This document shows, piece by piece, positions 2 through 64,000 of a stretch of 64,000 bases of DNA (the stretch's first letter is position 1; each line of letters begins with the position of its first letter). Location: positions 4,754,921 through 4,818,920 of the forward strand of contig CAJINV010000006.1 in assembly GCA_905178155.1 (NCBI GenBank), in the 5' to 3' direction. The notes beneath the pieces are model-generated. The model saw nothing but the letters and a program-made list of their open reading frames with translations, ran no database searches and was not told the origin of the DNA. This stretch comes from Amoebophrya sp. A120. Its lineage: Eukaryota; Protista; Dinoflagellata. A program made the position numbers and the translations under genes.

Positions 2-2968
2 CCGACGACCTCGTCCCGGTCAGCCCGTCGGGAAGATGACAACGACCCAGCGCTCCCACGTCTACTGCAACTGCCCTCCTACACTGCGTGTCCGCTGGCG
101 CCCCACCCGCGCGACGTGCCGTTTCCTGAAAAACTACTTTCGTGCTATTCGTATTCGCAGTTTGATGTTCCCCCGCGGCCACACAACTGCGATTTCACCG
201 AGAGGAATTCTTCCCAACTGCATCTGTCGAGACTGTATCAAAAATTTACCGACAAATACCAGCCACAGGACTGCCGTGTGCTGCACGCTCCCGGGGGGCT
301 ACCGCTCTCCATCTTGCGGCCCCGAACTGGCAGTGAGGACGCAACGGAGGGGGGGACGACATCGACACATGAGGAGCACTACGATTCGGGTTGTTACAAC
401 CTGCAGCAGCCCGAAGCCGAGCCACTTCCGAGTGCCGTTTCGTGGGGTGGGGCGACGGAGTCGGGGAGTACCACCGAAGGACCTGGTAGCAAAATCCCCA
501 TCCTGACTCTGGTGTGGGTACATTTTTACTCAGGATACTTGAAGATGTTGTTCCGACAGATGATCCACCCACGGTGTGTCGCTGCTGCATGGCGGTGATA
601 TCGAATGCAAAAGCATCGCACTCGTATAAATGCATTACAAATTGTTCACTTAGCAATACAAATTGAATCTGTAATGCGGATTTGCCTTGATAAAAAGATT
701 TGTAATGCAGAAACGCAATCAGTACGAGTACGATACTTTTGCACAGGATAGGTGAGCAAAGATGTTGATGATGGTGTCCCGGTCTTATGCATTGCAAATA
801 TGTCTGGGTCTGGAAACTTGTAATGCTAAAAGTGAATGAGAGTTCCACTGCAATACGGAGCCAAGCAAGACAAATTTTTTGGGCTCCTATGTGTTGCGTG
901 TTCCGCATGGCATAGCACACTGCGTTTTTGCATGACAGATGAGAGGACCGCTTCGTGCCCATGCATCACAGATTCTTGAGTCATGTCAGACACGCATGAC
1001 AAATGTAGGAATCTTCCAGATCCAAACATATGTGCATTTGATAGCTCTGCTGGTCATGCGGGGTCGTGGTGGCCAACATCTTCCCGGACGTACTCTGCCC
1101 GAGCGGACTCTGTATCAAATGCAAATATGTCTGGGTCTGGAAGGAGTCGTGCTGTTTTTGCATGACACAGAGGCTCTGGCATGCAAGCCCTAGCATCACA
1201 GGTTTGGAAAAGATTCCGCAATTATTAATCCTAATCCGCATGACAAATCCCCCACTTTGGTGGCAGTAAATCTTTTGCTGCCTACGCATGAGAGATTTGT
1301 GTGTTTTGTGAAATGCGCATCACAAGTTCACACCCTTCCAGACATCCAGACATATTTGCAATGCATACTCTGCAAGGCGGACTGAAAGGTCGGGGTGGAC
1401 CCGCGACTGGAGGTTTTCGAGCCAGGTAGTAGCCCGGTTATCGTGAGCAAAAACGTCCCCACACCAGAGTCAAGATGGGACATCTGCTAGACAAATCAAC
1501 CAGCTGTAGTTGCTTCGCATGACAAGTTTTGCCTCGTACTGCAATCCTGTTTGAGGTAGGTCAGCAGCATCACAGATCTGCCGATTCCAGCATCACAAAA
1601 TCCAAAACACGACTAGAAAATGCTTCTCATGGGGCTCCGCATGAGAAACTTTTTTGGCCCGCATGAGAAACTTCTCATGGGCTCCGCATGACCCACCCGC
1701 CCTGCGTGTCAAGCCATCTGCGGCCATGGTACAATGGGGGGGCAAAGTGTGTCGCATTTTGTTTAGCATGACAACTCTGGGGTGGGGACGTTTTTACTCA
1801 GAATACCGGTCTGGTAGGAGCGCACGGTGTAGTAATCCTGTTCATTCGGGCTGATGCTGGTCGAGCCTGCTACTGAGTGGCCGCTTGTCCCCGCCCGCAG
1901 GTTGGAGGGCGGCAGCGCTGGAGCGGCAGCGCGCTGAAACATGCTGGTCCACAGCCGCTTGGCGGTCACGGAGACGCAGCAGTTTACCGGCTCTTCCACA
2001 GAAACGCTGTGCTCTACTTGATGCCTGTCCCTCGCGGCTGCAACGGCAGCGCGTGCAGCCAGGTCCTGGAAAGATGAAGAAAAGTGGTCCTGCTCCTGTG
2101 GGGAGAAGCTTGTGCCGCTGTAGTCTTCGCCGAAGTCGGTTTGCGTAGAAATGCGACGAGTGATCCGACCACTCGGGACGTTTCGTGGGGTGGGGCGACG
2201 GGGTCGGGGAGTACCACCGAAGGACCTGGTAGTGATGCGGCAGCTGCATCTTGTTCGCCCACCAACAGGTACTCGATGGGCAGCCGTGGTTCTTGCGACG
2301 CTGCGTCCGCAGCATCTAGCAGTGCTGGTGGAGCAACGGGGTATATTGCAAATGCTCGCGCGCAGCACAAATCGAAATCCAGCTCTGCGTCTACAGACGG
2401 CAAGCCGCAGTTCCAATTTTTCTTCGGTACCAATCACGACCTGGATGTAGTAGTCCCGTCACCCAGAAAGAAAGGCATCACTCATCGTGGCAGCAGTGGT
2501 CCAGCTGGCATGGAGAAAAGCGACGAAGATGACAACGGGGGCAGCAGCAGCATTGAGATTGACCATGGTGACCGGGGTTGTAGTACCACCGGCGGCGCCG
2601 ACGTCGAGGAACCAACAGTAGCAGCAGCAGATGACCACCCAAAACCGCCACAACCAAAAGCAAAACCGGAACCCCTTCTGCTTCCCCTTTCCGCAAGCGA
2701 AAAGGCGAAAACCCGAAAAGTTCTGCTCAACACCCTCGTCGAGAGGAAACTGCAGCCCACGGACGCCCGGGTCCAGTCGCTCCGGGACGAAATCCATTCT
2801 CGCCGCGGGGCAATTGGGGTTTTATCGTGGGGCTACCCGTTCATCAGCGGTCACAAGAGCGGCTTTTTGAATGCGGCGATGCTTGACCCCCCCGCGGCGG
2901 TGCGACGTGGGTGGGTGGAAAAGCTGGGGGAACGGGCGGAGGAAGTTAAGAAGACCGTGCCTGTTTAG
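2..2968 (+). CDS. Hypothetical protein, 3' part (5' end outside window), interrupted by a 1.7-kb insertion
   Basis: Frame 2 is open from base 2 to 489 (...AVSWGGATESGSTTEGPGS). The same 54 bp recur at 2179-2232 in the same frame and continue to TAG at 2968. Deleting 1743 bp gives one ORF. Confidence 0.55.
487..537. mobile_element. Truncated terminus of a family B introner
   Basis: Matches the reverse complement of the first ~50 bp of 1439-1805; ends TTT-actcagg-ATA. Confidence 0.75.
599..750. mobile_element. Introner, family A
   Basis: TATcgaatgcAAAA...TTTTgcacaggATA; perfect 5-bp repeat GGTGA. Confidence 0.92.
786..1043. mobile_element. Introner, family C
   Basis: TATgcattgcAAAtatgtctgggtctgg TIR; repeats GGTCT/GCTCT. 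Confidence 0.87.
1113..1367. mobile_element. Introner, family C
   Basis: Family C TIRs; perfect repeat CTCTG. Confidence 0.92.
1439..1805. mobile_element. Introner, family B
   Basis: TIR aaaaacgtccccac.ccagagt; perfect repeat CCGGT. Confidence 0.92.
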
Positions 2969-3890: not shown

Positions 3891-6668
3891 ATGTCGATCA
3901 CGACCACCAAGCCGGCCCCGGTTCAGAAACCGGGAACAAAAAGCTGCACAGCTGCAATGAAGAAACCAACCACCTCCCACAAGTTCTCTTCCATGAAGAC
4001 CCCCGCAACCCCGGTTGTTCCTCTATCCACCAAAAAACAACCATCCCCATCCAATTTGTCATGCAAAACATGTATGAAGTCCTGTGTATGAAGTCCTGTG
4101 TCCGCCCGCCCCCCGGGGAGGGGATCCTTGACCTGTGGCGCTGGGTGCGGGTGTCCACTACATGATGATGATGATGCATAAAATGGATGGTGATGATTCT
4201 TTTTTCCTGGATATCCTCCGATCAAAACCTCCAAACTTCACGAGGAGCTCTGGAGCAAGTGGACGCCGGCGGAGAAGAAAGTTCTCGAGAAACTCAACAC
4301 CCCGGAAAAAATCCAGCTCTACCTGGACAACGAGATCAAGTACGGTGGGGAAGACGGCTGCCGGTCCATCCGGCACACCCTGAAAACGAAGGAGGCGCAC
4401 TGTCTCGGTGGGTCCTTGCTGTCCTACTACCTGCTTACCCGGCACGGCTACGAAGCCTTCTGCATCGGTTTGGAAGCCGTGAACGACGACTGTCACGCGA
4501 TTTGCGTCTACACGGTGACGAGCCCGATCTCCGGGAAGAAGTACTACGGAAGTCTGTCGAAGTCGTATCGACGGCAGAAGTAACGTACTAGTAATTTGAT
4601 CAGCACGAGAAATGAACTTTGTAAAAATGCTGGTTAGCGTACACGGATAGATCTGTCGTGCATGACTGCCCTTACTACGAGTACGATTTATACTTTTGCC
4701 ATGCATAAGTGGAACTTCACCCTGATCCGGTCCCGAGATGCAGTCTACTCCTCCCTCCGCGAACTGGTGATGAGTTACTGGGATTTCTACTTCAATACGG
4801 ACGGAGAAAAAACGCTGGTGTGCTACACGAAACCGTTCATATGAACTGCAAAGGTATGGTACTCGTATGAATGCATTACAAATTTCCTTAGCATGAGAAA
4901 TAACGTTTGTCGTGCGCATTTACCTTACGAAAAAAATTTGTAATGCATGACTGCCATTACTACGAGCGCGATACTTTTGCACAGGATAGCTCAAGGCGTT
5001 CACCGATTTCAAGGGGGTGAAGGGGAAGGAGGACAAGTTTTCCTGGATGTTCAACGAGTCCGGAAAGGATGCGAAATATGCATTGCAAATAAAGCGTCGT
5101 GGAGGTGTTGGTGTAACTGCAGAACAGCATGACAAAATTTTGAAAACGCAAAACTCAAAATCGTCACTTTGTCATGCTAGACCTGCCTACACCAAAGGTC
5201 CTTTGTATTGCACAGTCCTGCTCCATCAATCTGTAGTCAGATTACATTAACTAGCAATATGACACATAATGCTCCAATATGACATTTGACCAGGACGACA
5301 TGAAAAACCTGCCAAAACGCGCATTATCATATTGTAATATTGTCATATTGTCATAATGCATATTGCTCGCGACAGCCCGGCGGCTGAAAATTGGTCCCAC
5401 CCGACACGCTGCCGGCCAGGTGTTGCGATTCTAGGACCCTTTAGGCGGGTGCGTATGCATTTGCGGAAAATTTGGCGGGGCGATGAGCCGTACGCACTTC
5501 CTCCGCCCCTCTCGCCCTTGCCCAGGGGGCGTGGCGCTCGTGGCGTGGCCCCTCTCGCCCCTCTTGCAGCGTCGCATTTGTAGCGCGTCCTAGTGCACTG
5601 CAGCTTTTAGCACCAGCATCGCCCCGGCTCTGGGGCGTCATCGCTTATTGTACTCCGAAAGCACAACGCACGAAGCTGATCGCCACACCCACACCACAAA
5701 TAAAGCATTATGACGCAATGGCTGCTGAATTTTGAGCAATTGGATTCGCGTGCGGAATAGAATTCGCATGAGAGCGGGCGACCCGTGGCAAAGTCATTCG
5801 GGTCGCAACGGCCCAGGTCGCGCACATGTTCCTCTGGTTCGGACAATTGTGCCCTTTTCGCCGCCGCTAAAACAAAACGGAGGGACAGGAAGCAGGCCTT
5901 GCAGCGCCAGTAGTGCGTGGCGGGCGCTGCCGGGCCCGCTTTCGGGGGCGGGGGTTCCGACTTTCAACACCTTCTGGTCATTTTGCTCAAAATGCCGCAG
6001 TCATATTGTCATTTTGTCATATTGCCATATTGCATATTGGTAAAAGTGTCGAAATTTTGCTAGTTAATGTAATGTGTGTAGTTCGTCTGCGACGTGTAGT
6101 TTGTCCTGCATAAGCAGTACTGTGAGCAGGTGTTTGACGAAATGGACACGGTTTCGCTCTTTCCGGCGGAGGACCAGGCGGCTAAGAAGAAGATGATGAC
6201 GGCTTATGCAATACAAAAGTACACTCAGAAGGACAAACCGCATGACAAATTTACTTGAGTTTCAGCTACACAAATACGAGAGAAGAAGTTTGTCATGCAG
6301 GGACGCATCTACTGTTGGTGATGATGTTGTTGTACTTTTGAAATTGGATATCGCAATGAAGTCGCTGAAGTACGACACGCGGAAAGAGGGGAAGAAGCAG
6401 GAACACGTTTCGTGTTTTGGAAAATCCGTTTTTACCGCGCCGAAGATCTTGGTGGAGGGAGGGATATGAACTGCAAAACAAGTATCGTACTCGTATAAAT
6501 GCATTACAAATTTCCTCAGCATGATGAGAAATAAAATTTGTAATGCAGATTTGCCTTGGAAACAAGATTTGTAATGCAAGACTTGCATTGGCATTTGTAC
6601 GAGTACGATACTTTTGCACAGGATAAGGGACTCTGGACAGCAACCCGGATGGGCTGTACCAGTGCTAG
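3891..6668 (+). CDS. Transglutaminase-like / vasohibin-like cysteine protease, 307 aa, 7 exons
   Basis: Exons 3891-4023, 4219-4565, 4713-4839, 4994-5076, 6118-6204, 6356-6464, 6631-6668 total 924 nt in frame. Motifs LNTPEKIQ, AHCLGG, DDCHAI, GSLSKSN, VYSSLRELVMSY fit the vasohibin-like Cys-His fold (family recognised from memory). Confidence 0.8.
4024..4213. mobile_element. Introner, singleton family
   Basis: TATccaccaaAAA...TTTttcctggATA; perfect repeat TCCTC; restores VVPPIKT. Confidence 0.88.
4566..4707. mobile_element. Introner, family A-like
   Basis: Repeats AGTCG/AGTGG; restores SKSNFTL. Confidence 0.85.
4840..4988. mobile_element. Introner, family A
   Basis: Repeats GTTCA/GCTCA; restores KPFKAF. 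Confidence 0.88.
5077..6112. mobile_element. Introner enlarged by a nested MITE
   Basis: TATgcattgcAAA...TTTgtcctgcATA; repeat decayed (CGAAA/AGCAG) but the +5 rule restores DAKYCEQVFDEM. Confidence 0.75.
5238..6076. mobile_element. Nested non-autonomous TIR element, 6-bp TSD
   Basis: 17-bp IR attacattaactagcaa (5241-5257 / 6057-6073), termini CAG...GTG, TSD TGTAGT, subterminal GTCATATTG-like repeats. Confidence 0.8.
6205..6350. mobile_element. Introner, decayed
   Basis: TATgcaatacAAAAgtaca...tgtacTTTTgaaattggATA; +5 rule restores MTAMKSLK. Confidence 0.75.
6465..6625. mobile_element. Introner, family A
   Basis: Perfect repeat AGGGA; nearly identical to 21622-21776. Confidence 0.93.
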
Positions 6669-7880: not shown

Positions 7881-10800
7881 ATGGCGAATACGTCAACGGC
7901 AGCCCCCGCGGGTCTCCTCCTGCGCTTGTTCATCTCTTCTCTCGCTTTACTGAAGGCGAGTTTGTTCCTGCTCGAGCTTCGTGCAATCGTGGCAACAGAA
8001 GTTGCCCCCGATGCCGAGAGCAACTACATGCAGCAAGGCGCCTCCAAGCCAGACAGTGACCGCTCCGCGCACGCGGATAACGAAGATGTTAACCCCAGAC
8101 AACTCCACCTTCACCCAACTCTCCGGGCATCAGGAGCTGCATCGGATTCGTCATCATCTAGAAGGGCACGACAGCCAGAGCAGGCAGATCAGGAAATTTC
8201 CGCAGGCCGGGACGACGCTCGAGATCATGCAGCAGGTACTGTACCGTCTACGTCTTCTGGCGCAGCTGCTGGGGCTGCTGCTGCTGCTGCACCACAGTTA
8301 TTGCCATCTTCCGACGAGAATCCAGAGGAGCAAGACTCGTCGGCTACTACTTCATCCGACGAAAACGACCACACACTTGTCCTCAACGCACCCGCAAATA
8401 TTCCGCCCGCACTACCGCCACCACCAACAGTACCGTACATGCTCTTTCCCTCCAGCACCACAACAACTAACGCGACCAATAATTTCCGCAACAAGGAACA
8501 GAAACGCTGGAAAAATTTCCGCTTGCAAGTCGAAAACACTTTCGACACAATCCTATCCGATGCAAAAGTATCGTACTCGTACAGATGCAAGACTTGCATT
8601 ACAAATCTTACTCCTAAGATAAATCAGCACTACAAATCTGATTTCTCATGCTGAGGAAATTTGTAATGCATTATTATACGAGTGCGATACTTTTGCAGTT
8701 CATAAATCCTAGAGAACTACAAATCAAAATTCCCCCAGGCGGGCCATGATTTAAAGAAAAAAATCCTCATTCAGCTGCACCGAAACAAGTACAAGATTCT
8801 GCAAACGGGAAGGTATGCATTGCAAAAGCATCGTACTAGTATCAATTGCAATACAAATTTCCTTAGCATGAGAAATGGAATTTGTCATGCGGATTTGCCC
8901 TAATAAAAAGATTTGTAATGCTGGTGCAAGACTTGCCTTTATACGAGTGCGATACTTTTGCAGAGGATAGGAGGCTGATGCTCGCGACGAGGCGGAAATA
9001 CGAGGAGGAACAGGAGGCGGAAGTGCAGTTGTATATGCAAAAAATGATGCAAGCGTTGCAACAGGGCGCGAGTGAAGTACAGAGCGAGCTAGTGGCCGCG
9101 GGCGTGGACGAACATGATCAAGGTGGTCAAAATCATCACGAAGTTCAAGTGCAACTTCAACTTCCAGTATTGCAATTGAACCTCGGGGCGGGCAAAAGAG
9201 CAGGGAAAACGATGATAAACCCGGTAGAACTAGAGGCCGCGTATTCTGCCGGTTTCGCAAATGCTCTCGTTCCCCCGAGCGGCGGCATAATTGCTGCTAG
9301 AGATGAAGTAGACCAAGCTTCTACTGGAGATCCACAATCAGAACAAGTTGATCCACAGCAGCTACAAAAGCTGATGCTGGATCTGTTGCTCAATACACAA
9401 GTCCAGGCGGCGATGGCGAAGGCGTTGTCTGGTTCTGCCGGCGGTCTGCAAGCAGGGGCTGTTGTTCCAGCTGCATCGTCTTCAAACGGAGATACTAGCG
9501 AAGGTGTCGTGCCAGAAGTGCCTGTCCTGCTACCGCAGCCGCAAATCCAGTTTCAGATGCTGCGACCAGGACATCAGGCCGCTGCGTCTGCACCTTTGCC
9601 GAACCAGCTCCAGTTGGAACAAGCGCAAAATGCCGGACTAGAGCTTTTTCACAATAACGCGCCTGGTATTGCGTTTCTGGTCAACACGGATGCGGAGGGG
9701 AAGCCGCAACTGGAGAAACTTAGCGACAGTGATGCTGCGCTCGCACTTGCCGATGTGGCCGTGGGGGCCGCGAGTGAGGGGACCGTGCTGAACCTTCTTC
9801 CACCTGGTGGTGACATAGCTGGGGCTGAGGCCGCATCTTCAGAGGAAGGACCTGCTGAGCCTACCCAATCTTCTGAAACAAAAACGACCGAAGATGGTCT
9901 TGAAAGCAGAGTCGACGACACAGCTTTCTTCACCCGGCCTTCCTCTCTAGATTCAGTGGCAGAGCCGTCAAAGGCACAGGCTGCTTCTTCCGGAGACGAA
10001 AGAACTCCGACCGCGAGCCAGGAGGCCGCACAACTGCAAAGAAATGATGTTGGAGTTGTCCCTGCGGCCAAAAACATCAAGAAACGCAAAAAAAGGCCGA
10101 CCAAAGCTAGAGCCGACGCCGACAACACTTCCCCCGCAACACCGAAATACCAAGGCAAAACGGAGCTGGACCTGGATGAGAAAATCAAACTTTTTCTGGA
10201 GCACGAAAAGATGAAGGATGATTTGAAAAAATCTGTCATGGCAAAGGTGAAAGCAACGATGCAGAAAAGGGTAGAAAAACTGTCGCTCATGGACAGTGCG
10301 GAAGATTTGCAATTGCTTCTTGATGTTGATACTACTTCGGGGAACCAGCATGTTGACAAATTTGCGGAGCAGCAGCACAAATTTTTTCTGGAGCAGCAAC
10401 GGGAGGAGGCAAAGAGAATGGTGCAGCAAAAGGCAGAAATGGAGAACAAGAAGCAGCATACGCAAGAGAAAGTTCTTTTACCACCACCTCCATGGACCAT
10501 GTGCGCGTCCAACTCCATAGCTAATTTGCGATGCAGCGTAAGACGTGTCGAGAGAAAGAGATCTGTCATGCGTTTTTTTAATTTTCAAGGAGTCGGGGTG
10601 GGGTAGATTTCCTGTCAATAACGCACGAAGAGGTAGAACTGGATGCGATGGATGATGACTCAAATGCTGAGGAGGAGAAGGACCAGAAGGATCAGCTTCA
10701 ACAGGATGAACTACCTCCTGGACGATCCGCGGACGTCATGAAAAAAGAAAGTCAAAGTCTCACCATCGACGCCGTAAAAAGCTTAGTCACCGAAAACGAC

Positions 10801-13800
10801 TGGGCTCCGGACATCGAGCTGCAGCTCAACCCCATCCCGATCCAGCTACTCGGGCAAATTGCCAATCAGGTCAGCGTACAGGCACAGATGAAGGCACAGA
10901 AGCAAATGGAACGGGAGAAAGCCGCTGCCGCTGCCGCGCAAAATGAAGACCAAGGTCAAGCTCCTGGAAAGGACGGCGCAGAACAGGCCCAGACTGAAGG
11001 TTACCCGGCGACAGATGGAGCGCAGGCCGTGCAGCCGGAGCCGAAGCAAGGGGAAGGGCGAGATGTGGACGACAGTGGTGCCCCTGCGCCGCGACCTGCT
11101 GCTGCAGCAAGCGCAACTGATGTAGAAACTGGAACTTCTCAGACCGAGATGGGAGGCGAACAGCCGCAACGAGACAACACAGAGGGTGTCGCAAGAGAGC
11201 CAGACGATGCCCCTCCGGAGTCGAACAAGTGTACCGGTGTTGCAGCTGGTCCAGAACCTGCTTCAGTGCAGGACACAGCTCCTTCAACGGAAGATACCGC
11301 CACGACAACCTCCTCGATTTCCAAATCCAAACACCTCTCCCGTGCCATCCGCTTTTTCGTGCATTCGTTTCCCATGCTGGAAAAACCGATGACCGTGTGG
11401 CATCACCGTGCGTCGGAGCGGAAGAACGGCGTGTTTCTATGCGTGGCAAATTATAAAGCATCGTACTAGCAGAGATTTATATAAGCAATGCGACTCGCAT
11501 TGAGTCGCAAACCGGTCGCGGCTTGTCGCATTGCTCGCATTGCCCGCATTGCTCGCAAATCGCGAGGGTCTGCCAGCAGTCAGGCGCGCGGCAATGAAAT
11601 CCCCGCCATGCCGTCGCGATTCGCGAGCTACACGGCAGCGCACTGGCCTGCAAGTACAAAACTGGTTATCCTGCCCTGGGGCTTCTGTAGTGGCGGCTTC
11701 GCTCTCTTACCCAGGAGCGCAGTGTTTAGGTTTTAGATTTTTCTCGGGGAACAAAACACAAACCATGATGGAAGGCTGCCGTCGCGGGGCCCGCGCGAGG
11801 TCTAGCGAAGCAGGTGCAGAAACGACGACGGTGTGGGTGTGTGTTCGATGTTTCGGCGCACTTGCGGCGCATCTTGTTGGATGACCTGTTTTCACGTTCA
11901 CCTGCCGGCACCCACCCCGACCGAGATACTAGGTAGCTTCGTACGTTAGATAGGAGTAGGACTATGGCGCCCAACTAGGATCCGAGCGTGGGCACTCGCA
12001 GACGAACTTGCGAGAACGACTCGCAACACTTGCGACAGATCCGCGTGTTCGCAACTCGCAAGACCTCGGATCGCTGTCGCATTGCTCGCAAATCGCGGCC
12101 GGAAATTCCTTATATAATTGGCTGTACTAGTATGAATTGCATTACAAATTTGCTCAGCATGAGAAAGGGAATTCGTAATGCTGATCGACCTTAGGAAAAA
12201 ACGATTAAGATTTGTATATGCAAAACTCACATTCATACGACAGGAGTACGATACCTTTGCAATGCATAATTTCAGTTTTTCAACAAAAAACACGACACGG
12301 ACGCGAATTTGCGAAACACCTTCCACCCCTACGACCAAGTGAAGTTTGGGGGCCCGCACCAGCCTAATCTGCACGAGGAGGTAGAGTTGAGCAAGTTTTT
12401 GGACACGCTGTTGCAGGTCAGGGATCCAGCAGTCGTGCCGTCACAAGGAGCAGGATCAGGGCAATTGTCGTCCAAATTATCGGCAGACGGACACACAGCA
12501 CCTTCAGAAGGTGGGGGTTCTTCAGGAACGGATTATACCAGAAGTTCCGAAACTGCGACTGAAAAAGACGCAGTTGTACTAGAGGCACCACAGCAATCAG
12601 AGTCGGAACTACCCGGCGCTCTGATCCACGCCCGGCCGACCATTTTCACGATTCTCGGCGTGGACAAAAACGACAATGGCTTGGCCACGGGCTTGACAAA
12701 GTGGGACGGTGACGGGAACAAAAGTGTTTGCCCCTGGGATCTGAACGTCAAAGTGAATCTGCACGATCATCAAAGTCTTGTTGGGCGCCATCAGCATGAC
12801 AAAATCAACAAAAAGCATTACCGAATAGAAATCTCCCCCTGGCGCTGGCCCTATTGCTATCGGGTGGTTAAGATCTACGGGCCGCGGTATCGGTATCGGA
12901 ATGAAACTACTGCGACGGCCTCGCAAGGCGAGAAGGTGGCGGGCATGCCACGAGATGTGGAATCTGTATCGCAGGACGACCAGCACAGGAGCGAACAAGA
13001 GCTGCAAGACGCGGCCCAAGAAGCGGTAGCTGCGGGTAATTTCCCAATACAAACTCCTCTCCGAGTCTCCCTGGAGCTTTTCTACGAGCCGCATGGCACT
13101 GCGGTTCTGGAGGATTTTAAAATGAAAAACGGATTTTTTGCTTCATTTCCGCCCGGTGATTTCGACCAATTTCATCCGTTTATCACAAACAACAACGTGA
13201 AACTGCAGGAGAAGTTTTTCAAAGCGGCGCAAACCATCGGAGGCGTTTTCGAGTACCTGTTTTCTTTGTCCTCATCGACGTCAACGTCGACAAGCAGCAC
13301 CAGTTCCTCAACCACTACTACGCCTGACACGACCTCGGCAGCGGCAGATGTAGTTGCAACGACAACCACCATCACCGCGACCACGACAACTGCGACCAGG
13401 TCTAGTACCACCATCGCCAGTGGTACAACAGCAGGCTCTTCTCCTGCCTCAGAGATCGTTGGGAAAAGTGTGGAACTCCAAGACGAACAACATCCGTTGT
13501 TCGCTAGTGGTCGCAACAGTGTGGCCGCAAATGCTGTTGTGCCTGAAGATGCTCCTGTGCTCACCTCTCCCAACGGCTTAAGCGCAGAAATGAACTGGTA
13601 TACCGCGCAGTTGCGGTTCGACCCGAATGCCCGGACCTTCGTGATTCTGGTGAAAGCTCCGTTTTTCAGCCACTACTTTATCAACAAAGAACTAACCCCC
13701 ATGCCACGGTACGTGTTTCTGGAGAGCGGTGTTGCTGTTGGTGACACGGCTGTATCTAGCAATACAAATTTGCTATCCAATGCGACAGCCGCAACACAAA

Positions 13801-16800
13801 TTACCAAAGCCCGCATCCATTGGTCCTATAACAGATTCAAAGGCCGGGGCTTCGCAAAGGTCTACGCCGGGAATCTAACCGACGTGCCGCTGAAGAGAGT
13901 CGGTAACGTGCGAAGATCTGGCGCTCCTCGTGGTGCTTTGGGATTTTCATCTTCGTCGTTATTTCTCACACCCAACACGGAACTCGCCCAATTTCACATC
14001 GATAAATTCCTCGGGCAAATTCTCGACGACGCCAGCGTGATTCTCCCCACTGAAATCGTCAACCAACAGAGGTTCAACAAGGAGCTGAACCGCAAGCATT
14101 TTATCAAAGAACTGGAAAAGAACGTCACGGATTTACCGCCGGAGACCGTGCGGGAGGAATTGGAACAGAAGTTGATGGATTTGAAAACCCAATCGAAGAA
14201 AATTCTAAACACCAGCTACAAATCGGTTAAAGGATTCCTGCATCGGATGTTTCAAGGCGGAGGTCCTGGGGCAGCTGGCGCGAGGATGATGAAGCATGAC
14301 CCGGCGGCGGCAAAAGCGGCGAGAAATTTTCTGGCGTTCGGGGCCGCAGCTGAGGGAGTAGAGTCAACCGGATCTTCGTCCTTGAGCTCCTCTAGTACCA
14401 GCACGAGCTCAACAACTTGCAGCTCCACGACGTTCGAAAACGTGCACAAGTGCGAAGATGTTGAGCACCAGGAGGATGCAACTATAATGGATGACTCCTA
14501 TCCTCGGAGCTCTTCTATGGGTGTGGTATTCGCAGAAGCGGTCAGTGTTGACGAGAATATTGGAACAAGCAGCGCAGCTGCACCAGCAAGACAAGTTCAG
14601 GAGGAAACTACAACAGCATCAGGCGCAATAGAAATCGACCAGTTGACCATACACGAAGAGCAGCTGCACCACACCGAGCTGAACTTGAGCGGAAAAAATA
14701 GCGCTCGTGGACAGACACCATCGCCGCCTTCCACGACGACCCCTCCAGTGCCTACCTCTCCAGCAGCGCACTCCGATGAAGAAAGCAGCTCATCCAGAAA
14801 GAGAGCCCTACAATCGGATTTTCGAATCCTGGAGGAAATGTTGTCGATTCTGAAAGAGGCGAAAACACTAGAAATAGACCCCCACATCCCTGGTTTCACC
14901 GATGAGACCAAGAAGGAGAATTTCGAAATTCTGGTCAAGTCGAAAATTGAAAATCTGTTGAAAGAGCTCATCGACCGGACTGCGGGCGGAGGAGGTTCTG
15001 GAAGTACAACAGCCGGCGATAGTCATCAAGGTGGCGCGTTGTCGCAAGTGGACCGGAAAAATATGGAGAGGAACTTGCACCAGTTTCAAAGCGAGTATTT
15101 GAACGTGATCAGGAGGAGGCAGGTGCAGGCGACAGGAGCGGCGGATGGAGAGATGACAACTCCACAGGTGCCTGGTGCTCCAATTGGTCTTGCAACTACT
15201 GAAGCTGGTCAACAAGCTGTGGACATCAACACGGTCTTCGACATCCAGCCACAGGAGGTAAGTATCCAGACGTCGTCATCCATTGCTAGTACTGGAGTAG
15301 GAGCTGCAGGTGGAGGAAATGCTGCTGCTTCTGCAACACAAGCTGCTTCATCTTCGCCATCTGTTCACCACCACCCAGAAGAGCAAGAAGATGGCTTCGA
15401 GTTTCAAATCGACTTCGCGCATCCGCACGCGGATACAGACGCCAAGCAAGCCCAAGCTGCTCAAGCCGCTGCTGCATCTGAGTCTGACGCACACCACCTG
15501 CTTGATGACCCGGAGAAGAAGCTTCTTCTCGACCAGGCTTCCGACCACGCTCACGCGGGGTACCAAATTTTTGAAGTGGTCACAGGTGGTGGTGGTGAGG
15601 GTGGGTCCGCCACTGCAGGAGGACCACCTGGCAGCCTCCCGACTGGGCCAATGCAACCTGGCGCAGTTGCTGCAGCACACCAGCATCAGCAACAGAAACA
15701 GCACGTGCAGCAACTGCGGCAACAGCCAGAAGACCCAGCGGTCTCTGCGGCCAGAGTAAATTCCTACACGGCGCAGGCGTCGCACATTCTGAGGGAGAAC
15801 CCCTTGAAGATAAAAGCGTGGATCGAGGGTTTTCAGCACAAGATCTTTATTCCCTGAAAAATTTGTACACTCCCCATCCACTTTTTGCATGACAAAAACA
15901 GAACTTACTTCGTGTTTTGCATTACAGATTGGGGAGCGTTCATTTTCAGGTAATAGTCTTCCTCTTCTTCAACGAAGCGATCAGTGTGGAGGATTTGGAG
16001 GCGCTGGAAGATGATCATTTGAATAGCGATAGTGCTAGCGATCATGGGGATCACAACGACGGCAGCGCCTTCGACGATAAAGAATCAGAACCAGAAGACG
16101 TCGGTCCTCGCACTAGTGTTGACGACGAGCCAATATCTCCTGTCAACTACATCGACGTTGCCTCACCCAAAAATCTGCAGAAGATCGCCACCCGTCGGAT
16201 CGACCAATACTACGACCAAATCGCGAGGGAAGTGAAACACCATTTCGTCATGACCTGGAACAGCTACAAGAAGCACGCTTGGGGCTTCGACGAGTGGTGC
16301 CCGACGACGATGAAAGGCAGCAACGATTCCTTTGGCGGGATCGGGATGCAGATATTGGATTCTCTCTCCGCATTATTAATTTTCGATATGGACGAGGAAT
16401 TTATTTTCGCGAGGGATAATTTCGTCCAAAACCTCGATTTCAAAAAGGCCAGCACGCGGGTGGAAGTTTCGGTTTTCGAGTTGATGATCCGGGCGGTTGG
16501 TGGGTTACTGTCCGCTTATGCGATGATGTTGGAGAAGATTTTGCGGAAGGGGATCAAAGCCTTCGTACCAAAAAGCGACTATAGGGGGAAAAATTTGAAA
16601 GATCTCACCTTCGACGATATGACGCAGGTGTTTCAGAAACACAAGCAGAAGGTTGAAGATGAAGGTCGTCGTCGTGCAGCGGGGAATTATGAGAAAAAGC
16701 CTCCCGTCCTCGGGGCCGGCTCCGCCTCATCTACATCTTCATCAGATATCAAAGCGCTGGCCCAAATTTCCGCGGAACTTTCAAAAAACACGATTTTTTT

Positions 16801-30770: not shown

Positions 30771-30772
<2 letters not shown>

Positions 30773-32690: not shown

Positions 32691-32931
32691 TATGGGTGTG
32701 TCAGGATCGAAATTCTCAAAGTTGAAAAAAAAATCCGGGGGCCCCTGAAGAGGTGCCGGGATTTTGCGTTTCAACTCTGACACATTCGCCCCCCCTCCGA
32801 GCTAGCCACCACGCTATGCTGGAATGTGTCAGAGTTGAAGGGGGTCCCGGAGGGGGTGCCCTGAAGGCCCCCGCCAAGGACTGCCAGAATTTTTTTTCAA
32901 CTTTGACGATTTCAATCCTGACACTGCCATA
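32691..32931. mobile_element. Family E TIR element, apparently non-genic
   Basis: Same TIR type as 23996-24301; perfect repeat AAGGA; internal perfect 18-bp IR 32770-32787 / 32822-32839. Confidence 0.9.
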
Positions 32932-45060: not shown

Positions 45061-45096
45061 AACCGCTGTATATGCTTCTGTGCTGTAGAGATAAAT

Positions 45097-45268
45097 TGAA
45101 CTAGAAACCCTAAAACCCATTAAACCCTGAGAAGCCCGGCCTCGACGGACGCCCATCTTGTCTTTCATAATCCCTACATGCATATTTTTCGAAAACAAAA
45201 AGGAAAAAAAGGAAGGATGAAGAGAAAAATCGAGCGAGGCGAACGAATCTCTCGGCGGCCTATGATGA
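45097..45268. mobile_element. 172-bp insertion with telomere-like junction and 15-bp target duplication
   Basis: GCTGTAGAGATAAAT at 45082-45096 and 45269-45283; aaaccctaaaacccattaaaccct near the left junction. Confidence 0.7.
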
Positions 45269-54545: not shown

Positions 54546-55880
54546 GATTTGATTTTATCGTCGGTGGAGTGCGGGGCAGTTGGAGTTGCAATTGGATTTT
54601 TTTTACATGACAAGATTTAGATTACTTCTATACTGCTGTGTAAAATCTTCAAAATAGCCTTTTGAGTAGATCACAATCAGTTTCAGATTACTATTATACC
54701 GAAAAAAACAATAATTTTCTGAATAAATCATGAAACATACTGGCGATCATAGCCTACGAACTAAAAAGCTACCAGGAGCATCATGCTCGTATATTGAGCA
54801 GTTTGAAACAGAACTCGAAAAATACAAACGCTGTTTTTCATGTGAACAACAAAACAGTCACGAGATGAAACATCTCGATGATGGGAAGGCCCACCCGCTG
54901 CTGGAGGCACCATGACCTTCAGGCGCCCGCCACCAGGACTAGCTGTATATCAAAAAGAGCTCGGATCCTTCGTTCAAAAATAAGGCTGTTTTCGATTTTC
55001 TGCGTTTTTTTTCCGTACAGCAACAACCCTTGCCTTCAATTATTTCCTCAAACTGGAAGAAGTAGAAACATTGTTCATCTGTAAAGTTTCATTTAGTTGA
55101 GTCGAAGTTGTCGGAGCATTTCATTATCGGAGGAGACTTGAAAATCGAGGCTAAGTTCAAACAAGGGAGTAAATAGCATCATACTGAAACTGTAGCTTGT
55201 TCCGTCTTTTTCTATATGCACCTGCAGGCGCGTTCTTGTAGCAAAATCTGTATTCTTTGTTTTCTTCTTTCTATCTTACAGGTTGAATTTCAACATTTGT
55301 TTCTAGTAGTAGTTCTGATGTGTCAAAGGAGCAAAATTTCAAATATTACTCTTTTATTTCAAATTCAAAATGGAAAAAATTCTGCTGTGCACCATTATTG
55401 CTTCAACCACGGCCCCAGTTACAACTTACACCTCGTCAACAGAAGTTCAACATCCTTTTTTTCAGAAGAGAATGCCTCCACCTAGCTGTTGTTCCTCACA
55501 CTGTAGAAAGCATCGTCTGGTGGGTTGAGTTCCGTCCTGTTGTTGGTTTTGCGATTCGCTCGTTCTAGGCCGGGAAGATGAGTGGGCGGGAACTTATTCT
55601 GTGTTATGCAGCAACAAAAAAATACACGTTGATCACAACGATGTCATTCTCATTTTTGAGTTCTCATGCTCGGTATCAAAATGCCTTGACCACTTTCTCA
55701 TTCTTGCTCAAATTATGTGGCCTTGCTGACGTCGATTAGGCTCGCAGGTCGAGCTGCGCAGGGCAGAGAAGTCAGAATCTCCCGATTACAGAAGATCCCC
55801 ATGATGTCTACACGCGAAAAGCTAAAGCAGCAGATGCAGAATCAACACGTTATGTCATAAAAATTATGTCGTTGCAGCTA

Positions 55881-58800
55881 TCAAGTATCTTTTGTTTCAC
55901 CCTCCATACTGTCGTTGTATCGCTCTTCGAGTGAAGCTGCTCTATCAAATGTAAAAGTGTCTGGGTCTGGAAGAATGCAAGTTTGTCATGCTTGTCTCGC
56001 GTGACTCTGGAATCTGTCATGCGTGAGCAGGTGGTACCTATGAGAGCACCCTACTTTCGATCTCCAGGCCTTTCATGCCGTGATGGTCTTGCGGCCCTGT
56101 TCTTGATCTTGTTGGGACCCCGTGCGGCGGAAGGTTGCCCAGCACCACAGACTTTGCGCCCTCGCTATTTAGTAAGCTTTTCTACATATTATGTCGTCGC
56201 ACTTCGTACGCGGAACTTCGTATGCAAGTGGTCACATGATGACGCGTTTTTTGTTGGTCGTCGACTGTACTCTTTTTTCGTTGACGCTAGCAAGATGTAA
56301 GAACTCGCCCTCACGTCTGACTTGCAACATTTTTTTAGTATTTTTACTCGTCGAAATTCGTAAAATAAAACTTCGTATGCAGCTGATACATGATGATAAG
56401 TTTGCTGCCTTATGCTGTGCTCCTTTTCTTTGGCGCTAGCAAGGCAATAAGATTTCAATCTCATGTCTGATCGGTAAGATGCTCTTCATCTTTTAAGTAT
56501 TTTTAAGTGCGACAACATGATATTTGTAAGCTTATCGGCCGTCGTGCCACCGGGACGTCCTGCCCGTAGACCACCAATGTCATGCGTGAGCAGGAGAGTA
56601 GCCTCTCACCTGTCATGCAACAACGCAGTTTGTCATGCGGGAAGCGAAACACATAGGAGCTCAGAAACTTGTCATGCGTGGCTGCGTAACGCAGTGCGCT
56701 TACCATGCACAAACTAGCATCACAAGTTTCCAGACCCAGACATTTTTGCATTTCATATGCTCCCTCCCAGAACCATTCGGTCTTCAATTCGCCGTGTTCG
56801 TAAAACGCGAAGCAGATGCGGTACACTTCCCGTACGGTTATCCTGTGTCACAACATCCCCGGCCCATAGATAGTAGTCACGAGTATAAGTTTTGGTCGTC
56901 GAGCATGACACATTTGGGCTTGCGGTCTGGGGCCGTCGAATCAAAATCGACGTGTGCTTTATCCTGATTCGGGTTCCAGCATGACAAACTCTCAAATATT
57001 GATAGTCGAAAGTCAAATTCAGAACGTTCCTCATGGGGCTGGGCATCAGAAGCATTTTATCCTTGCGGATTTGCATGGCAAAACTGGGCTGGGGCAGTTT
57101 TCACACAGGATACCGTTGCACTCGGCCTCCCCCGGCGGTGTGAAGATGTACTCGGTGTACGCAAACCCTTCTGGAGCACCCCGTCGCCAGGTCCCGAAAA
57201 ACTGGTACCACAGGCCTTCCTCGTCCGGGAGCCAGACATAACTCCCCCACCCGTTCCGAGTCTATGAGAGACAAAAACCGCACAGCTGCCATTGATTTGA
57301 AACTGCAAACAAAAATCCCTTGTTTTCGCTTCATTCTTCGGAAAGCATGCAGCATGACCGTAAAAGTATCTTCACAAGGCTGAGAATGCAAGACTTCGTG
57401 CTTGGAGGAGTATAAGTCTGCATTGCGTTTTTGATTGTGCGGGAAGTGCTGTCAGCACACAACTACCTATTTTTGTAATGCACAAGAATAAATGGCGACC
57501 CAGTTTTGTGTACCATATCACCCCATCTTTGAACTCCCCTTGGAAGTAGTCACCCCTTTCGTCCGTAGAGCTTTATGATTGCAAAAACATCTTTTCAAGA
57601 ACGCATAGCGCATAGCACATTCTGAATAGATCACTGGCGTTGCTCGTCTCCTCGTCTAGATATCAACTACATTACCGTGGTGGAAGCCGAAGGACGAAAG
57701 CAAAAGTAGTCGTAATTGCGTATTTATGCTCAGTCATATGGTCATGCGTAGTGGGCAGCCTTCTGACGTCGTTTTGCAATTTCATAAAGTGCCGTAACCA
57801 TGTGGAATCGGTTTCTCCAAATCGTCAAACAGATTTTTCTTGGCCGACCCCTGTATTAGTATTTGTGTGTGTTGATTCAGGTTATTTAATATTTTTATGT
57901 TTTTTTATTTTCGCATGACAAAGACAATCATCATCATGATCCTGGACCACGGGAAGATAAAATCAAAAGCATTCGTACAGTGTAGTGATAGCCCTCAACA
58001 GGGTCGTAAAAAGACGCCGAGATATGGCCTGGCCAGGTGGAACAGCATCTTCAGCTGGAGAAGTATTGGATGACCACTTGTGATATTGATGAATACGCCG
58101 TGTGGTCCATCCTAGTTCGCTCAGCATGACAAACATCTATACACTCAGCATGACAATCCATCGGAAGCGAGAACCGCACTGGAATCCGACGTGTCGTTCA
58201 TACGAAGCTGCAGGATGTGGACTTACAACAGCTATACTTAGTGCCAGGTGTAACTTTTGTTATTATTACAAATTTAGGAATAAAAAAAACCGTGTTGCTC
58301 CACCAGTTGCGACTGTTCTATCTGAGCAGGCCATATTGGAACACTGGTTCGCGTTCGTCCACTCCGCTGGCCCTTTGCTCTCCGCCGGAACAAACCGGGT
58401 CCTCGGATTTGGCGCCTGGTCTGTTGGTGCTGCGGCCGGTGGTGTTCGTGATTCGATTTGTCAAAGGAGGAAAGGATTCCGGAGACGGTGGTGCCAAAAT
58501 ATGGTCTATGGCGTTCTCAAACGTTAATACATTCTCAGCTGCTACATGAATTTGTCATGCAAAAACACCTTAAGCCGGTAGATGATCGAGCTGCTTCGCA
58601 TGACAAATTTCGGAAGGGCGAGACAGTGTCAAAATCTGCGCCAAACTTGTAATGCAAAAGGCGCAATCTTGCTTCTTTCACTTTTGCCAGTCATGCATTA
58701 CAAATTCATGTAACCGTTGAGAATGTACTTAACATTTGAGAACTCCATATGGTCACGGTAATAGTTCTGCAGGAGTTGCTGGTCCAATGGCGAAGACGCG

Positions 58801-60435
58801 ATCTCCGGAGGCTCTTCCAGGATCGGTGACGGAAGCGCTCGGAACTGGATTCTCCCCTGCTCCAGCAGGTGGTGGTGCCAAGCGGCAGTCCACTGCTGCG
58901 GCGCGTACAGCACTACAGGTGATGGTGGCTTCTGTTCATGTTCGTGCAGCACTGCGGCAGACGAGGAGAAGGAGGACTCGTCCACCATAACGGGAAGGTA
59001 TCATGCGCAAAAAAAGGATCGCACGCACGGCTGCAGGTTTTCGTTCCACTGACATCACAAAATCTGTATCTATCAATTTTCGTACACAGACACATCAAAT
59101 CGCCCCAAGGCAGGAGAGCGTATGCATACCCGGAGTCAGAACTTCCACGTACTGGGTTTGGTATCCATATCCAAGTTCTTGCAGGAATGAGTGCGATCAT
59201 ACTTGTTTTCATCGTGCATACAGAATCCGCCTGCAGGAAGCGCTCCGAAGCCGACATGCTGTACACCTCCGGGCTGTTGAGCAGGTTGAGGTTCGTTCCT
59301 GTCTCCGGTTCACGTTCTCCATCTACGGGGTCTTCCTGGTCGCCGATTGGATTTAGGTGACTGCTGGTCAATACCACCGGCGTCGTTTCCCCGGGCGCTC
59401 CGCTCCTAAAACGAAAACTCACCTCGCCGAATGCGTTGTCGGAGGACCTACTTCTACTACTCCCGGTTATACTCGCAGCAGAAAATTATGGTTGTGCACA
59501 ACTTTCCCTCCACCTTATATATTTGTCATGCGAAATCCCAAATCCAGCTATTCCTTCTTGGCACTGTTTGCATCACAGATTTCACATCGAGCCCAGACGA
59601 GGTAGGGGCAACACTCGGCGCATCAAGTTGTCATGCACGGGCTCCAGCACGTGCGCTGCTCCTGATGTTTGTGTTCATACAAATCAGAAGGAGGGGGAGT
59701 TGTGCGGTGGCATAAATTCACAGATTCGATTTCCCTGTGCGCATGTGCAGTGGCAGGTGGCGAACAAGACGAAGAGGCGATGACTTTGGTGGGAGACGGA
59801 GGCTGGTGTTGTAGTTGTTTCGATACTGCCCCTGCCGGCGGAAAACTGCAATCGGATGGACATATCACAAGAAAAAGCGTAAACGTTGTACGATTTTCTT
59901 CACTACGGATAGCATTCATGCGTCACAAACTAAGCCGAAGGAAGGTGTATGCTCTGCATGACAAATTGAAATTTGGATACGTTTTCGTTTTGTGAATGTG
60001 ATCCAGTGCTGCGTCACAAATTCATCCTTGTAACGTTTTTCCTTTTTCTTGTGATATGACACGACTTTTCCTCGTCACGCACCAGCTCGCGTTGCAGATG
60101 AAAGGAGGACACAGGTTCTAGACCCTTTTCTTCTGCTCCATCTTGGTCCTCGTCCTGTTTTGTGGATTACAGGCTAATGATATATCAAAGCATGACTGAT
60201 GCCGCCGGTGCGGTTGTCCGCATCATTTCGATTTCCGGCAAATTTGCATGACAAGTTCCTCTTACCCCGCCTGTCTGGTGACAGCTTTTGCTCGTAGTGC
60301 TATATTCACTACATATTGTCAACACAAGTACTATACCGGAACGCTCGACGTAGCAACCCGCCTTGCGCGTTCTTGGGCATCGAGCCGCATCAGCTCGAAA
60401 TAGTCTGCTGCTCTGCTCTTGCGGCGACGCAACAT
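55881..60435 (-). CDS. MORN repeat-containing protein (about 12 exons)
   Basis: Spliced product contains YHYTGS...PHGYGT, GDYFQGEFKDGVRNGWGSYVW and YQFFGTWRRGAPEG (MORN consensus YxGxWxxGxxHGxG). First exon and the intron near 60165-60335 are tentative. Confidence 0.7.
55943..56757. mobile_element. Introner, family C, carrying a 546-bp insert
   Basis: Perfect repeat TGCTC; internal 17-bp duplication 56015-56031 / 56578-56594. Confidence 0.88.
56839..57112. mobile_element. Introner, singleton
   Basis: TATcctgtgt...acacaggATA; repeats ACGGT/CCGTT; frame restored. Confidence 0.78.
57263..57517. mobile_element. Introner, decayed
   Basis: TAT-N7-AAA at both ends; repeat lost; +5 rule restores MORN KDGVRNGWG. 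Confidence 0.75.
57574..57786. mobile_element. Introner, decayed
   Basis: TATgattgcaAAA...TTTTgcaatttcATA; restores HGYGTSTDERG. Confidence 0.75.
57851..57978 (-). other. Canonical GT-AG intron
   Basis: act|GTACGA...CTAATACAG|ggg restores YHYTGSAK; contains the shared decamer at 57913-57922. Confidence 0.72.
58023..58335. mobile_element. Introner, singleton
   Basis: TIR TATGGCCTG / CAGGCCATA; +5 rule restores VFQASFYDP. Confidence 0.7.
58507..58749. mobile_element. Introner, family D
   Basis: Perfect repeat TGGTC. Confidence 0.92.
58999..59220. mobile_element. Introner, decayed
   Basis: TATcatgcgcAAA left end; +5 rule restores DSAVMVDES. Confidence 0.62.
59487..59714. mobile_element. Introner, singleton
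   Basis: IR gcacaact / agttgtgc; several shared decamers; frame restored. Confidence 0.7.
59863..60056. mobile_element. Introner, singleton
   Basis: Perfect 15-bp TIR TATCACAAGAAAAAG; repeats GGACA/TGACA. Confidence 0.88.
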
Positions 60436-61944: not shown

Positions 61945-64000
61945 CTACATGGTCCTTGCGAGCCTCCCCGCGTTCGCGACCTCCCCGACACTGACTCCAG
62001 TTTCGTGCATCGGGTTACGGGCTTGCCTCGTCCTGCGCTCGCCACTACGGGAACCACGTCTCTTGACAGACCTATCACTTGCAAAAAATGTTGTGCGGGT
62101 AAGGGGTCGTGCGCTCTCAACAATGCATGACAATCACAATCTGTGCATTTGCATGACAAACAGGTACTGTTTCGTTGTCTCGGCTCGTGGAAGTAAGTAT
62201 GCAATACAAATTCTAAAAAATGCTGAAAAAGTAGCTACGTCGTATGAAATGTCAGTATCACGATCACCTTCACCATGCAACAAGCCATGCATTACAGATG
62301 CACTTTCCAGAGCCGCGACATGTGGTCTGCAGTTGCAGTTGATAGGGCGACCTGTTGGAGTACCACTCTGAGAAGGAGTACAGCGGTTTCTTCTGCAGTT
62401 CCTCCAGCGCTCTGTCAGCCGCGTGATGGCGGTACTTCGGCCCACAGCAGGGTGCTATCAAAGAAAAACCTGGCGCAAACAAGTCCAACACGGCTGTCCT
62501 GCGCCTCCGTGATAGATGTTTTCGGCCTATAATTTCATCACGGGGGTTGATCTACACTCGTTGTGCATCTTTTTTCTAAGTACAAAGGGGGCCGAAGTGC
62601 CTCTGAGTGGGCTTCTCCACCAGCCAGGGCGTGGCATACGCATGAGAGAGTCATAACCAAACTTGTCAAGGACTTGGACTCTGTGCGACCAGTTTTTCTT
62701 TGCATAGTCTCCGGCTTCGTCTGGGTCTCCAACTGCTTCCGCAACATCTCCACCTTTTCCCGCTTCTCCTGTACGCACCGCCGCGCCCAGTTTCGCAGCA
62801 CAATCATCGCGTAATTCTCGCGGATGAACGCCTGGGCCTCCTCCGCAGACATCGCTCCCCGCAGCGCTGCTGCCGCAACCGCCCGCTGGTGCTGTGATTT
62901 GTATTTTTTTTGGGTTGTAGTTTACATTACTCCCACTTCTCATACATCGTTTCAAAGAGCTATCAACGCTTACGCATGTTGACAGCGCGTCCAATTCTCA
63001 GAAGAAACTGTCGCACAACATCTCCTTTCACACATGAAGATGCGTCTGTAGCCAAATAAACTGTACCCTTTTCTTCCTTTGTTCCAGGAGTTTCACTTGC
63101 GACCGCGTCGGTGGAAGTGGCGGCTTCACCGAACCCACCCTCGCGCTCGGTGTTCCCGTCGGCGGCGGAGGCTTCGCAGGCACTTTTGGTTTGCTGGCGA
63201 ACACTGGGCTGCTGCAGATGTTCTCAGTTTCGTGGAGGAACACCGGACTCGTGCACGTGTGCCAGCTTGTCGTTGATCCGGTGCCGTCGCTGTCCACCTC
63301 GGGATCGCTGGGTACCGCCACACGGGTTCTGCCGCCGAAGGCAGAATTTGGCTCCTCGTTCACGTTCGTCACCTCCATCTCGGGATTGTTAATACCGCCA
63401 GATGAAGCGCCATCAGTTTCTTCTGTATTATTTTTCGACGTATCCAGTTCAAATATGTCTGGGTCTGGAAAGTTACAAGACTTGCCAAGCAGATTTCCCA
63501 TGAGCCCTGAGGTCTGGAATGCAGGATCTAGCATGACAGTCTGTGAAATCTCCATCAGGCTTATCCTGGATGACAGACCTCATCTCAATTCGTTGAAACG
63601 TAGACAACTTGTTTTGGTAATCATGCGAGTACAGATTTTCAAGAAGTAATACACGATCTAGGCTTGTTACGTGCCAAATCATACACTTCCAGACTCAGAC
63701 ATATTTGCAATGCATAGGGGGTTGCTGTTGCTCCGCCACGTGTTCTGCTTTCATCGCCACCAGCGGGCTCTTCATCTTTCGCCCAGGCCAACTCCGCGGG
63801 TGGGTTTGCGCTGTAGTTGCTACCACTAGCCGGCTCTTCTTTTGTCGAGGCCAACTCCGCGGGGGGATTTGTGCTGTTGCTGCCACCAGCCGTTTATGCA
63901 TTGCAAAAGCATCGTATTCGTACTAGTATATTATAAATTGCATGACAAATTTGCTCAGCATGAGAAATTAAATTTGTCATGCTGTTTTACCTTGGAAAGG
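61945..64000 (-). CDS. Hypothetical low-complexity protein, 3' part (continues beyond window)
   Basis: The +5 rule joins GATATP|KNNTEE across 63441-63716 and NRSP|VKRRG across 62073-62344; introns between 62500 and 63060 unresolved. Confidence 0.5.
62073..62344. mobile_element. Introner, decayed
   Basis: TATcacttgcAAAA...ttgcagttgATA. Confidence 0.65.
63441..63716. mobile_element. Introner, family C
   Basis: Family C TIRs; repeat decayed (CGACG/GGGGG); frame restored. Confidence 0.82.
63895..64000. mobile_element. Introner, family A, truncated by the window edge
   Basis: TATgcattgcAAAAgcatcgta and family A interior. Confidence 0.85.

Follow-up and report, generated by a model that had tools for sequence, protein, structure and literature searches.

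The introners of Amoebophrya have been described as comprising many families that carry inverted repeats of the form TAT + 7 nucleotides (nt) + AAA, are bordered by 3–5-nt direct repeats, and lack GT-AG boundaries (Farhat et al. 2021, PMC7789003; Gozashti et al. 2025, PMC12130899). They number tens of thousands, the available portion of PMC7789003 states that their spread and splicing mechanism are unknown, and an integrase-like open reading frame (ORF) has been reported between the terminal inverted repeats (TIRs) of one family (PMC12130899). Three other systems offer points of comparison. The hAT transposon Hermes has subterminal repeats that are bound by BED domains and keep an exact phase with one another and with the TIR, a requirement of its transpososome (PMC10368747); the IS3EU/GingerRoot DNA transposons have TA..TA termini and target site duplications (TSDs) of usually 6 bp (PMC10045372); and the non-canonical introns of Fritillaria and euglenids are TIR-derived, with paired ends that bring the splice sites together (reviewed in PMC11282704). 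Here we describe a decamer, GCAT[GTC]ACA[AG]A, referred to below as the box, that recurs within the introners of a 64,000-nt stretch of Amoebophrya sp. A120 (contig CAJINV010000006.1, positions 4,754,921 to 4,818,920; the window), whose elements, judged by their sequences, match the published introners. The published accounts, in the portions available, describe terminal inverted-repeat and direct-repeat motifs; the shared internal box, its lattice and its phase with the element ends are described here. The box is a real feature of known introners and is apparently unpublished; literature searches for such a motif or for the literal decamers found no paper, and GCAT is absent from the text supplement of PMC7789003 (supplement figures excluded).

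The window contains 103 exact copies of the box where 1.2–4.0 are expected (Markov orders 1–4). Gene models place 82 of these in TAT..ATA introns, seven in GT-AG introns, ten in other non-coding DNA and four in called exons, although two of the latter (33725 and 33784) lie inside a family-A-like element that the gene model miscalled; three intergenic stretches of the window (25400–32690, 36850–40980 and 43000–45700; 14 kb) have none. Introns are richer in the box than exons, with 6.7 exact boxes per kb in TAT introns, 1.4 in GT-AG introns, 0.3 in other non-coding DNA and 0.045 in exons. Nine of the ten positions first cited for the decamer are exact matches on one strand, and the tenth (1517–1526) is a one-mismatch variant ending in G. 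The box is looser than originally written, with T/A at position 4, C/G at position 7 and a variable position 10, and T is preferred at both +11 and +12.

A three-box pattern search of metagenomes gave at least 148 loci, at least 138 of them from one assembly (JACKZZ01 identifiers), and these carry the same element families as the window; ten loci outside that assembly were dropped as tandem repeats or unrelated. The same pattern has no match in viral contigs, and 93 matches there to a two-box pattern were read as chance or tandem repeats. The long related loci together with the window amount to 574 kb, in which an element search blind to the TSD kept 527 TAT..ATA elements (shuffled sequences give about 3 per 128 kb at a score of ≥24). 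Splice joints were taken from contigs of runs X1–X3, which are one sample and were taken as RNA by guess, there being no record of them as RNA; they provide 25 joints among those listed (one of the two listings giving 15 of 48), corresponding to 24 non-canonical introns and one GT-AG intron (57851–57978), and we refer to these 25 as RNA-confirmed. A purpose-built gene finder recovered all 25 joints, having the cut rule described below built in, and 553 of its 696 predicted introns passed flank filters. No two elements in the set have common flanks, and hence there is no orthologous or paralogous pair for comparison.

The 527 elements fall into 13 families of three or more copies (3–172 each), and all 13 family consensuses, drawn from the window and 138 related loci, carry between two and eight boxes, which occur in both orientations. 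The interiors of different families do not align, whereas the boxes and their spacing persist. The original prediction had called the families unrelated, but they are not wholly so: all start with TAT, have 5-bp direct repeats and obey one cut rule, by which the RNA is severed 1 nt upstream of TAT and 4 nt downstream of ATA. This rule fits all 24 RNA-confirmed non-canonical introns (22 exactly and two with one mismatch), so that 24 of the 25 listed joints remove the intron without GT-AG, and 21 of the 25 RNA-confirmed introns contain an exact box. The TIRs begin with TAT, about seven loose bases and AAA, families D and E being without the A run, and the 5-bp TSD is free of mismatches in most elements of high score. 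The TA..TA termini of IS3EU/GingerRoot elements are found here but their usual 6-bp TSD is not, a comparison made through termini and TSD. Transposon origin and paired ends are common to these introns and those of Fritillaria and euglenids, for which the available part of the review describes no shared internal box. No autonomous element was found in the 574 kb. Large families insert both ways round relative to transcription (57 and 59 copies in one, 59 and 44 in another); family 2, with a window member at 46072–46286, is skewed 10 to 27. Among young elements in the window and loci L094–L168, 328 of 343 interrupt predicted coding exons, which make up less than two thirds of the non-element DNA; this excess may reflect targeting to genes or purging elsewhere, and is partly ascertainment, the loci having been found through such elements.

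The arrangement of the boxes is highly regular, and has several components. First, neighboring boxes in the consensuses are 14–18, 28–36 or 43–57 nt apart with few exceptions, those in the same orientation mostly 31–33 nt, and no spacings of 23–27 nt occur. Second, the boxes of the 13 consensuses fit a lattice of 16–17 nt on which 31–33 nt is the most frequent spacing, with a best period of 16.75 (R = 0.68, reached by none of 2000 random placements) or of 17.0 without orientation offsets (R = 0.67), and the lattice is repeated in 17 elements outside the 13 families (p = 0.0005); a 10.5-nt periodicity between boxes was rejected (R 0.15–0.19). Third, the outermost boxes mostly point outward, and 18 such boxes lie 31–33 (6), 40–43 (9) or 52–54 nt (3) from the element end. 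Their end phase gives R = 0.85 at 10.5, again reached in none of 2000 random placements, a second set of 11 ends gives p = 0.02, and related TIR groups show steps of about 10 nt among themselves in end distance. A spacing of 31–33 nt is three helical turns, and the outer boxes are three, four or five turns from the terminus. These arrangements can be seen in the following elements of the window:

6465..6625, + strand: family-A introner, TAT..ATA with a 5-bp TSD; boxes at 6501 (forward), 6537 and 6568 (reverse, 31 nt apart); RNA joint 6459/6626.
786..1043, + strand: introner with three forward boxes at 930, 963 and 994 (33 and 31 nt apart); intron predicted, outside the RNA-compared stretches.
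1439..1805, + strand: introner with a variant box at 1517 and exact boxes at 1567 and 1590; predicted intron.
15848..15955, + strand: 108-nt introner with forward boxes only, at 15887 and 15919 (32 nt apart); spliced, RNA joint 15843/15957.
17193..17469, + strand: introner with reverse boxes only, at 17253, 17302 and 17335; spliced, RNA joint 17187/17470.
23996..24301, + strand: family-E introner, boxes at 24035 (reverse), 24171 and 24253 (forward), the outer ones about 40 nt from each end; predicted intron.
58507..58749, - strand: family-D introner, boxes at 58551, 58598 and 58695; RNA joint 58498/58747.

This geometry is best read as that of a protein site on double-stranded DNA that is phased to the termini. 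As in Hermes, the boxes are short repeats inside both ends, in both orientations and with palindromic pairs, and their phase is fixed both among themselves and relative to the terminus; the Hermes sites, as the available portion of that report describes them, are 4 bp in one family, whereas the 10-bp box is present in 13 families with unlike TIRs, occupies the whole interior and follows a 16–17-nt lattice. The present elements have a TSD of 5 bp. Members of the hAT superfamily have an 8-bp TSD, and we therefore suggest that these ends work like hAT ends but do not file them as hAT.

We propose, and on balance think it probable, that the boxes are putative subterminal binding sites for the mobilizing machinery and work on DNA like phased subterminal repeats. 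By analogy with Hermes, protein likely binds the box array in phase with the TAT ends. A sequence-specific protein would read the decamer on the duplex, and the array would help to assemble the complex that moves the elements, not guide the cutting of RNA; the binder could be the DNA-binding domain of a transposase, or else a host factor co-opted for the purpose. Selection would fall mainly on copies that go on transposing, so that boxes would stay constant both inside a family and between families and would decay once a copy has inserted, and the host would keep the TAT/ATA hairpin ends for splicing. The orientation of the boxes makes no difference to splicing, and old introns are spliced even where the box is gone. 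Three inserts nested in introners are bordered by 13–18-bp direct repeats that include part of a box (one in the window, listed below, and those at L116:3862-4492 and L162:1561-2313 among the related loci), as a retroelement that targets the box might leave; this is another use of the site at the DNA level.

56030..56577, strand not assigned: insert nested in an introner, with a 17-bp direct repeat holding most of a box; host intron spliced, joint 55937/56758.

The history of the boxes was followed in nine families (281 copies; family A was left out because the related loci had been found with a family-A-type pattern). Private changes per site number 0.038 in the box core and 0.094 in the interior, and this lower rate indicates that the box is constrained along element lineages. 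With TSD mismatch as the clock of time since insertion, the slope is 0.016 for the core (confidence interval (CI) 0.003–0.031) and 0.003 for the interior (CI -0.008 to 0.016). Core changes therefore rise with TSD mismatch at least as fast as those of their neighbors, which on this weak clock argues for no protection after insertion. Exact boxes per intron drop from 1.85 to 0.3–0.5 with TIR decay, an intact box is kept in one of 14 old introns with a credible TIR, and 25 of 32 old family-less TAT (hairpin) introns are without an intact or variant box, though some of these predictions may have wrong ends. Thirteen elements of the same families lie outside coding sequence, some of which may be introns of untranslated regions, and they have 1.3–1.6 exact copies each versus 2.0; the original prediction had regarded an equal frequency in intergenic elements, or decay at the neutral rate in old introns, as the mark of a transposase-binding site. 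Splicing persists in old introns such as these:

57570..57787, - strand: old non-canonical intron with TAT/ATA hairpin ends, TSD matching at 2/5, no box; spliced, RNA joint 57568/57787.
58995..59221, - strand: old non-canonical intron with ends kept, TSD matching at 1/5, only a core-broken box; spliced, RNA joint 58994/59222.
55601..55909, - strand: old non-canonical intron with no exact or single-variant box; spliced, RNA joint 55600/55910.

Several observations weigh against a site that serves mobilization alone. No transposase or binding protein was identified, and among the 553 introns used 528 are predictions without RNA confirmation. The end phase cannot separate 10.5 from 11 (R 0.85 versus 0.83), and the 18 ends are not independent, since six families have equal distances at both ends and TIR groups are common to families. 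The TSD clock is weak, in that the interior slope spans zero and there are 0.07 mismatches per site even in the most alike copies, and selection on a single box could be masked by the others in the same element. The 94 GT-AG introns without an element remnant contain 12 intact boxes against 0.4 in shuffles and only eight core-broken boxes against 4.8 expected, whereas neutral decay predicts more broken than intact boxes and is rejected with p = 0.001 at 25% divergence but only with p = 0.05 at 15%. Finally, the element at 32691–32931 matches family E at its ends as far as the point where the first box would lie, and has a perfect TSD, yet no box. Such ends could thus move without boxes, although this is a single case or may be another lineage with the same ends; an inner inverted pair within it resembles the element's own TIR.

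32691..32931, strand not assigned: box-free element with family-E 40-nt ends, a perfect 5-bp TSD and a different, GC-rich interior; outside predicted coding sequence, a natural control.

The boxes of GT-AG introns warrant closer description. The three "decayed introns" from which the original prediction argued persistence are all of this class, one of them RNA-confirmed and two only predicted:

57851..57978, - strand: GT-AG intron with one orphan box at 57913, 56 nt from the 5′ splice site, without TIR or TSD; RNA joint 57849/57978.
22034..22209, + strand: predicted GT-AG intron with a G-TAT start and one orphan box at 22080; gene model, no RNA joint listed.
10501..10589, + strand: predicted GT-AG intron with one orphan box at 10562, ends uncertain; gene model, next to no RNA cover.

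An exact box is present in 14 of 99 GT-AG introns (22 copies against 0.37 expected). Three of these, predicted introns among the related loci, L161:5111-5250 (-), L167:6178-6308 (-) and L116:1809-1995 (+), are former family-A introners whose interiors are recognizable and whose TIRs are partly or wholly lost, the interior of the L161 intron being about 90% like a family-A copy; with the interior retained, the box there needs no box-specific selection. Their state suggests fast remodeling of the ends when an introner turns canonical through G-TAT. In the introns without remnants, 11 of the 12 orphan boxes are the G variant and their flanks resemble no element (p = 0.22); dropping two probably mis-bounded introns leaves nine intact boxes in eight of 92. 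A G-TAT start is found in six of eight GT-AG introns with an orphan box and in 16 of 74 others (p = 0.004), and nine of 11 orphan boxes are 25–65 nt from the 5′ splice site (post hoc p = 0.0015), a clustering that single-mismatch variants do not repeat (3/9, p = 0.59). Intact orphan boxes so far above chance suggest that a minority of old introns have a single box retained by the host. The argument from persistence to selection is supported for that minority, the three examples included, but not for old hairpin introns, which mostly lose the box. These boxes also suggest that the binder is useful to the host, which would make a host or domesticated protein likelier than one that is purely selfish.

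Together with the box-free 32691–32931 element outside coding DNA, the intact GT-AG boxes raise the possibility of a host role, perhaps as a DNA-level intron mark, which we consider unlikely but worth setting out. A host protein on the box array of the template DNA would recruit or pause the U1-less splicing machinery as polymerase passes; the mark would work in either orientation, and new insertions would need it while old introns would drop it once their ends suffice. Consistent with this, boxes are blind to orientation yet bound to introns, as the densities above show, the orphan boxes are intact in GT-AG introns resembling converted introners and are mostly the G variant near the 5′ splice site, the sole box-free young element lies outside coding sequence when nearly all young elements interrupt exons, and U1 was not detected in these genomes (PMC7789003, available portion). 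However, 85 of the 99 GT-AG introns and most old non-canonical introns have no box, the three RNA-confirmed box-free introns are joined in the same transcript contigs as neighboring introns, young copies have no 5′/3′ asymmetry (z = 1.0), the 25–65-nt clustering is absent from single-mismatch variants, and splicing has no need of a helical phase to DNA ends. A broader and more speculative scheme, which we advance only tentatively, is that one host or domesticated protein binds the phased arrays in either direction, moves at least 13 families into exons and flags the DNA for the U1-less spliceosome, converted GT-AG introns keeping one strong box near the 5′ end for that reason.

It is distinctly improbable that the box is a general host chromatin or transcription-factor site, carried by the elements as mere cargo and taking no direct part in their movement or splicing. 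The apparent selection on orphan boxes would suit such a site, as would some lone copies in other non-coding DNA and about eight true exonic copies where 2.3 are expected, but it leaves unexplained both the phase to element ends and the lattice common to 13 families, and the 14 kb of intergenic DNA in the window have no copy. The exonic copies include two in the giant gene, a GH47 gene (Pfam PF01532 match), in which a single one had been noticed at first:

12794..12803, + strand: exonic decamer in the GH47 gene; predicted exon.
19383..19392, + strand: second exonic decamer in the GH47 gene; exact match, in an exon covered by an RNA contig without a joint.

A guide at the RNA level, in which a small RNA or RNA-binding protein would read one box orientation in the pre-mRNA and both orientations would be carried so that an element splices whichever way it inserts, was the original prediction, as a small nuclear RNA (snRNA)-like guide or protein site, and we now regard it as very unlikely. 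All three cited old introns read UYUGUCAUGC in RNA, and core changes are slightly more frequent in RNA-forward boxes (z = 1.6). Yet the boxes of the 25 RNA-confirmed introns are balanced relative to transcription (21 forward, 25 reverse), 401 oriented copies show no transcription asymmetry, and a given box is intact as often in one RNA orientation as in the other, and at one end as at the other (stratified z = -1.3 and 1.0). Nor do old introns settle on one orientation, GT-AG introns having nine forward and 13 reverse copies and family-less TAT introns seven and eight. Carriage of both orientations is not needed for splicing, as the forward-only intron 15844–15956 and the reverse-only introns 17188–17469 and 56835–57113 are all spliced; the RNA of the first lacks a reverse copy, and its two boxes cannot pair together. 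Three of the 24 RNA-confirmed non-canonical introns (55601–55909, 57569–57786 and 58995–59221) are spliced without an intact or single-variant box, and in two of these, which were folded, the terminal hairpin closes. The absence of strand bias, the splicing of one-orientation and box-free introns and the loss of the box from most old introns make an RNA guide unlikely, and the window has no Rfam match. Families whose boxes all point the same way are spliced in both insertion directions, so that no RNA box, single-stranded or paired, can account for all cases, and duplex DNA fits best; a DNA site explains the cis-signal better than an snRNA or RNA-binding-protein site does. Pairing of the boxes as double-stranded RNA was also considered and rejected (the outer boxes cannot pair in four of 13 families), RBFOX-like (GCAUG) and ApiAP2-like (TGCATGCA) sites fit neither the position-5 variants nor the core, and the likeness of the ACAGA variant to the U6 box was set aside, since ACAAA dominates and both orientations occur. 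Least credible of all, and barely tenable, is a functionless relic of one ancestral element kept by descent, for although TAT ends, 5-bp TSDs and one cut register are common to all families, their interiors do not align while boxes and spacing persist, and the box core changes less than half as often as neighboring bases.

One box across families with unlike TIRs, in a strict lattice and in phase with the ends, implies one protein serving all of them, and the box duplex offers a bait with which to name it. Were the binder a transposase domain, it would be the missing mobilizer; were it a host factor, it would explain the entry of elements into exons or intron recognition without U1. The box also provides a family-independent means of annotating these introns, and the data separate the parts kept by the host (the TAT/ATA hairpin ends and the 1+4 cut) from those that the element needs.

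Some further features were noted. GC-rich inverted-repeat elements without TAT ends or exact boxes are nested in introners at 5245–6071 and about 11470–12110 of the window, and the 1041-nt host intron at 5075–6115 is still spliced despite its nested element. A 415-amino-acid ORF without a Pfam match is encoded at L156:1514-2758 (-), in a 2.4-kb insert within a family-B introner end. Raw-read runs X8 and X9 do not cover the exons, and X8 has about 90 reads with family-B ends and a box that derive from another locus and are too few to use. Each of the three RNA contig sets differs from the window at 19469–19475, within the final exon of the GH47 gene, by a 1-nt deletion and a C>A change, either an assembly error or an allele. 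A segment of about 55 nt is duplicated at 428–537 and 2180–2232, and the family to which the element at 1439–1805 belongs has a solitary right end at 487–537.

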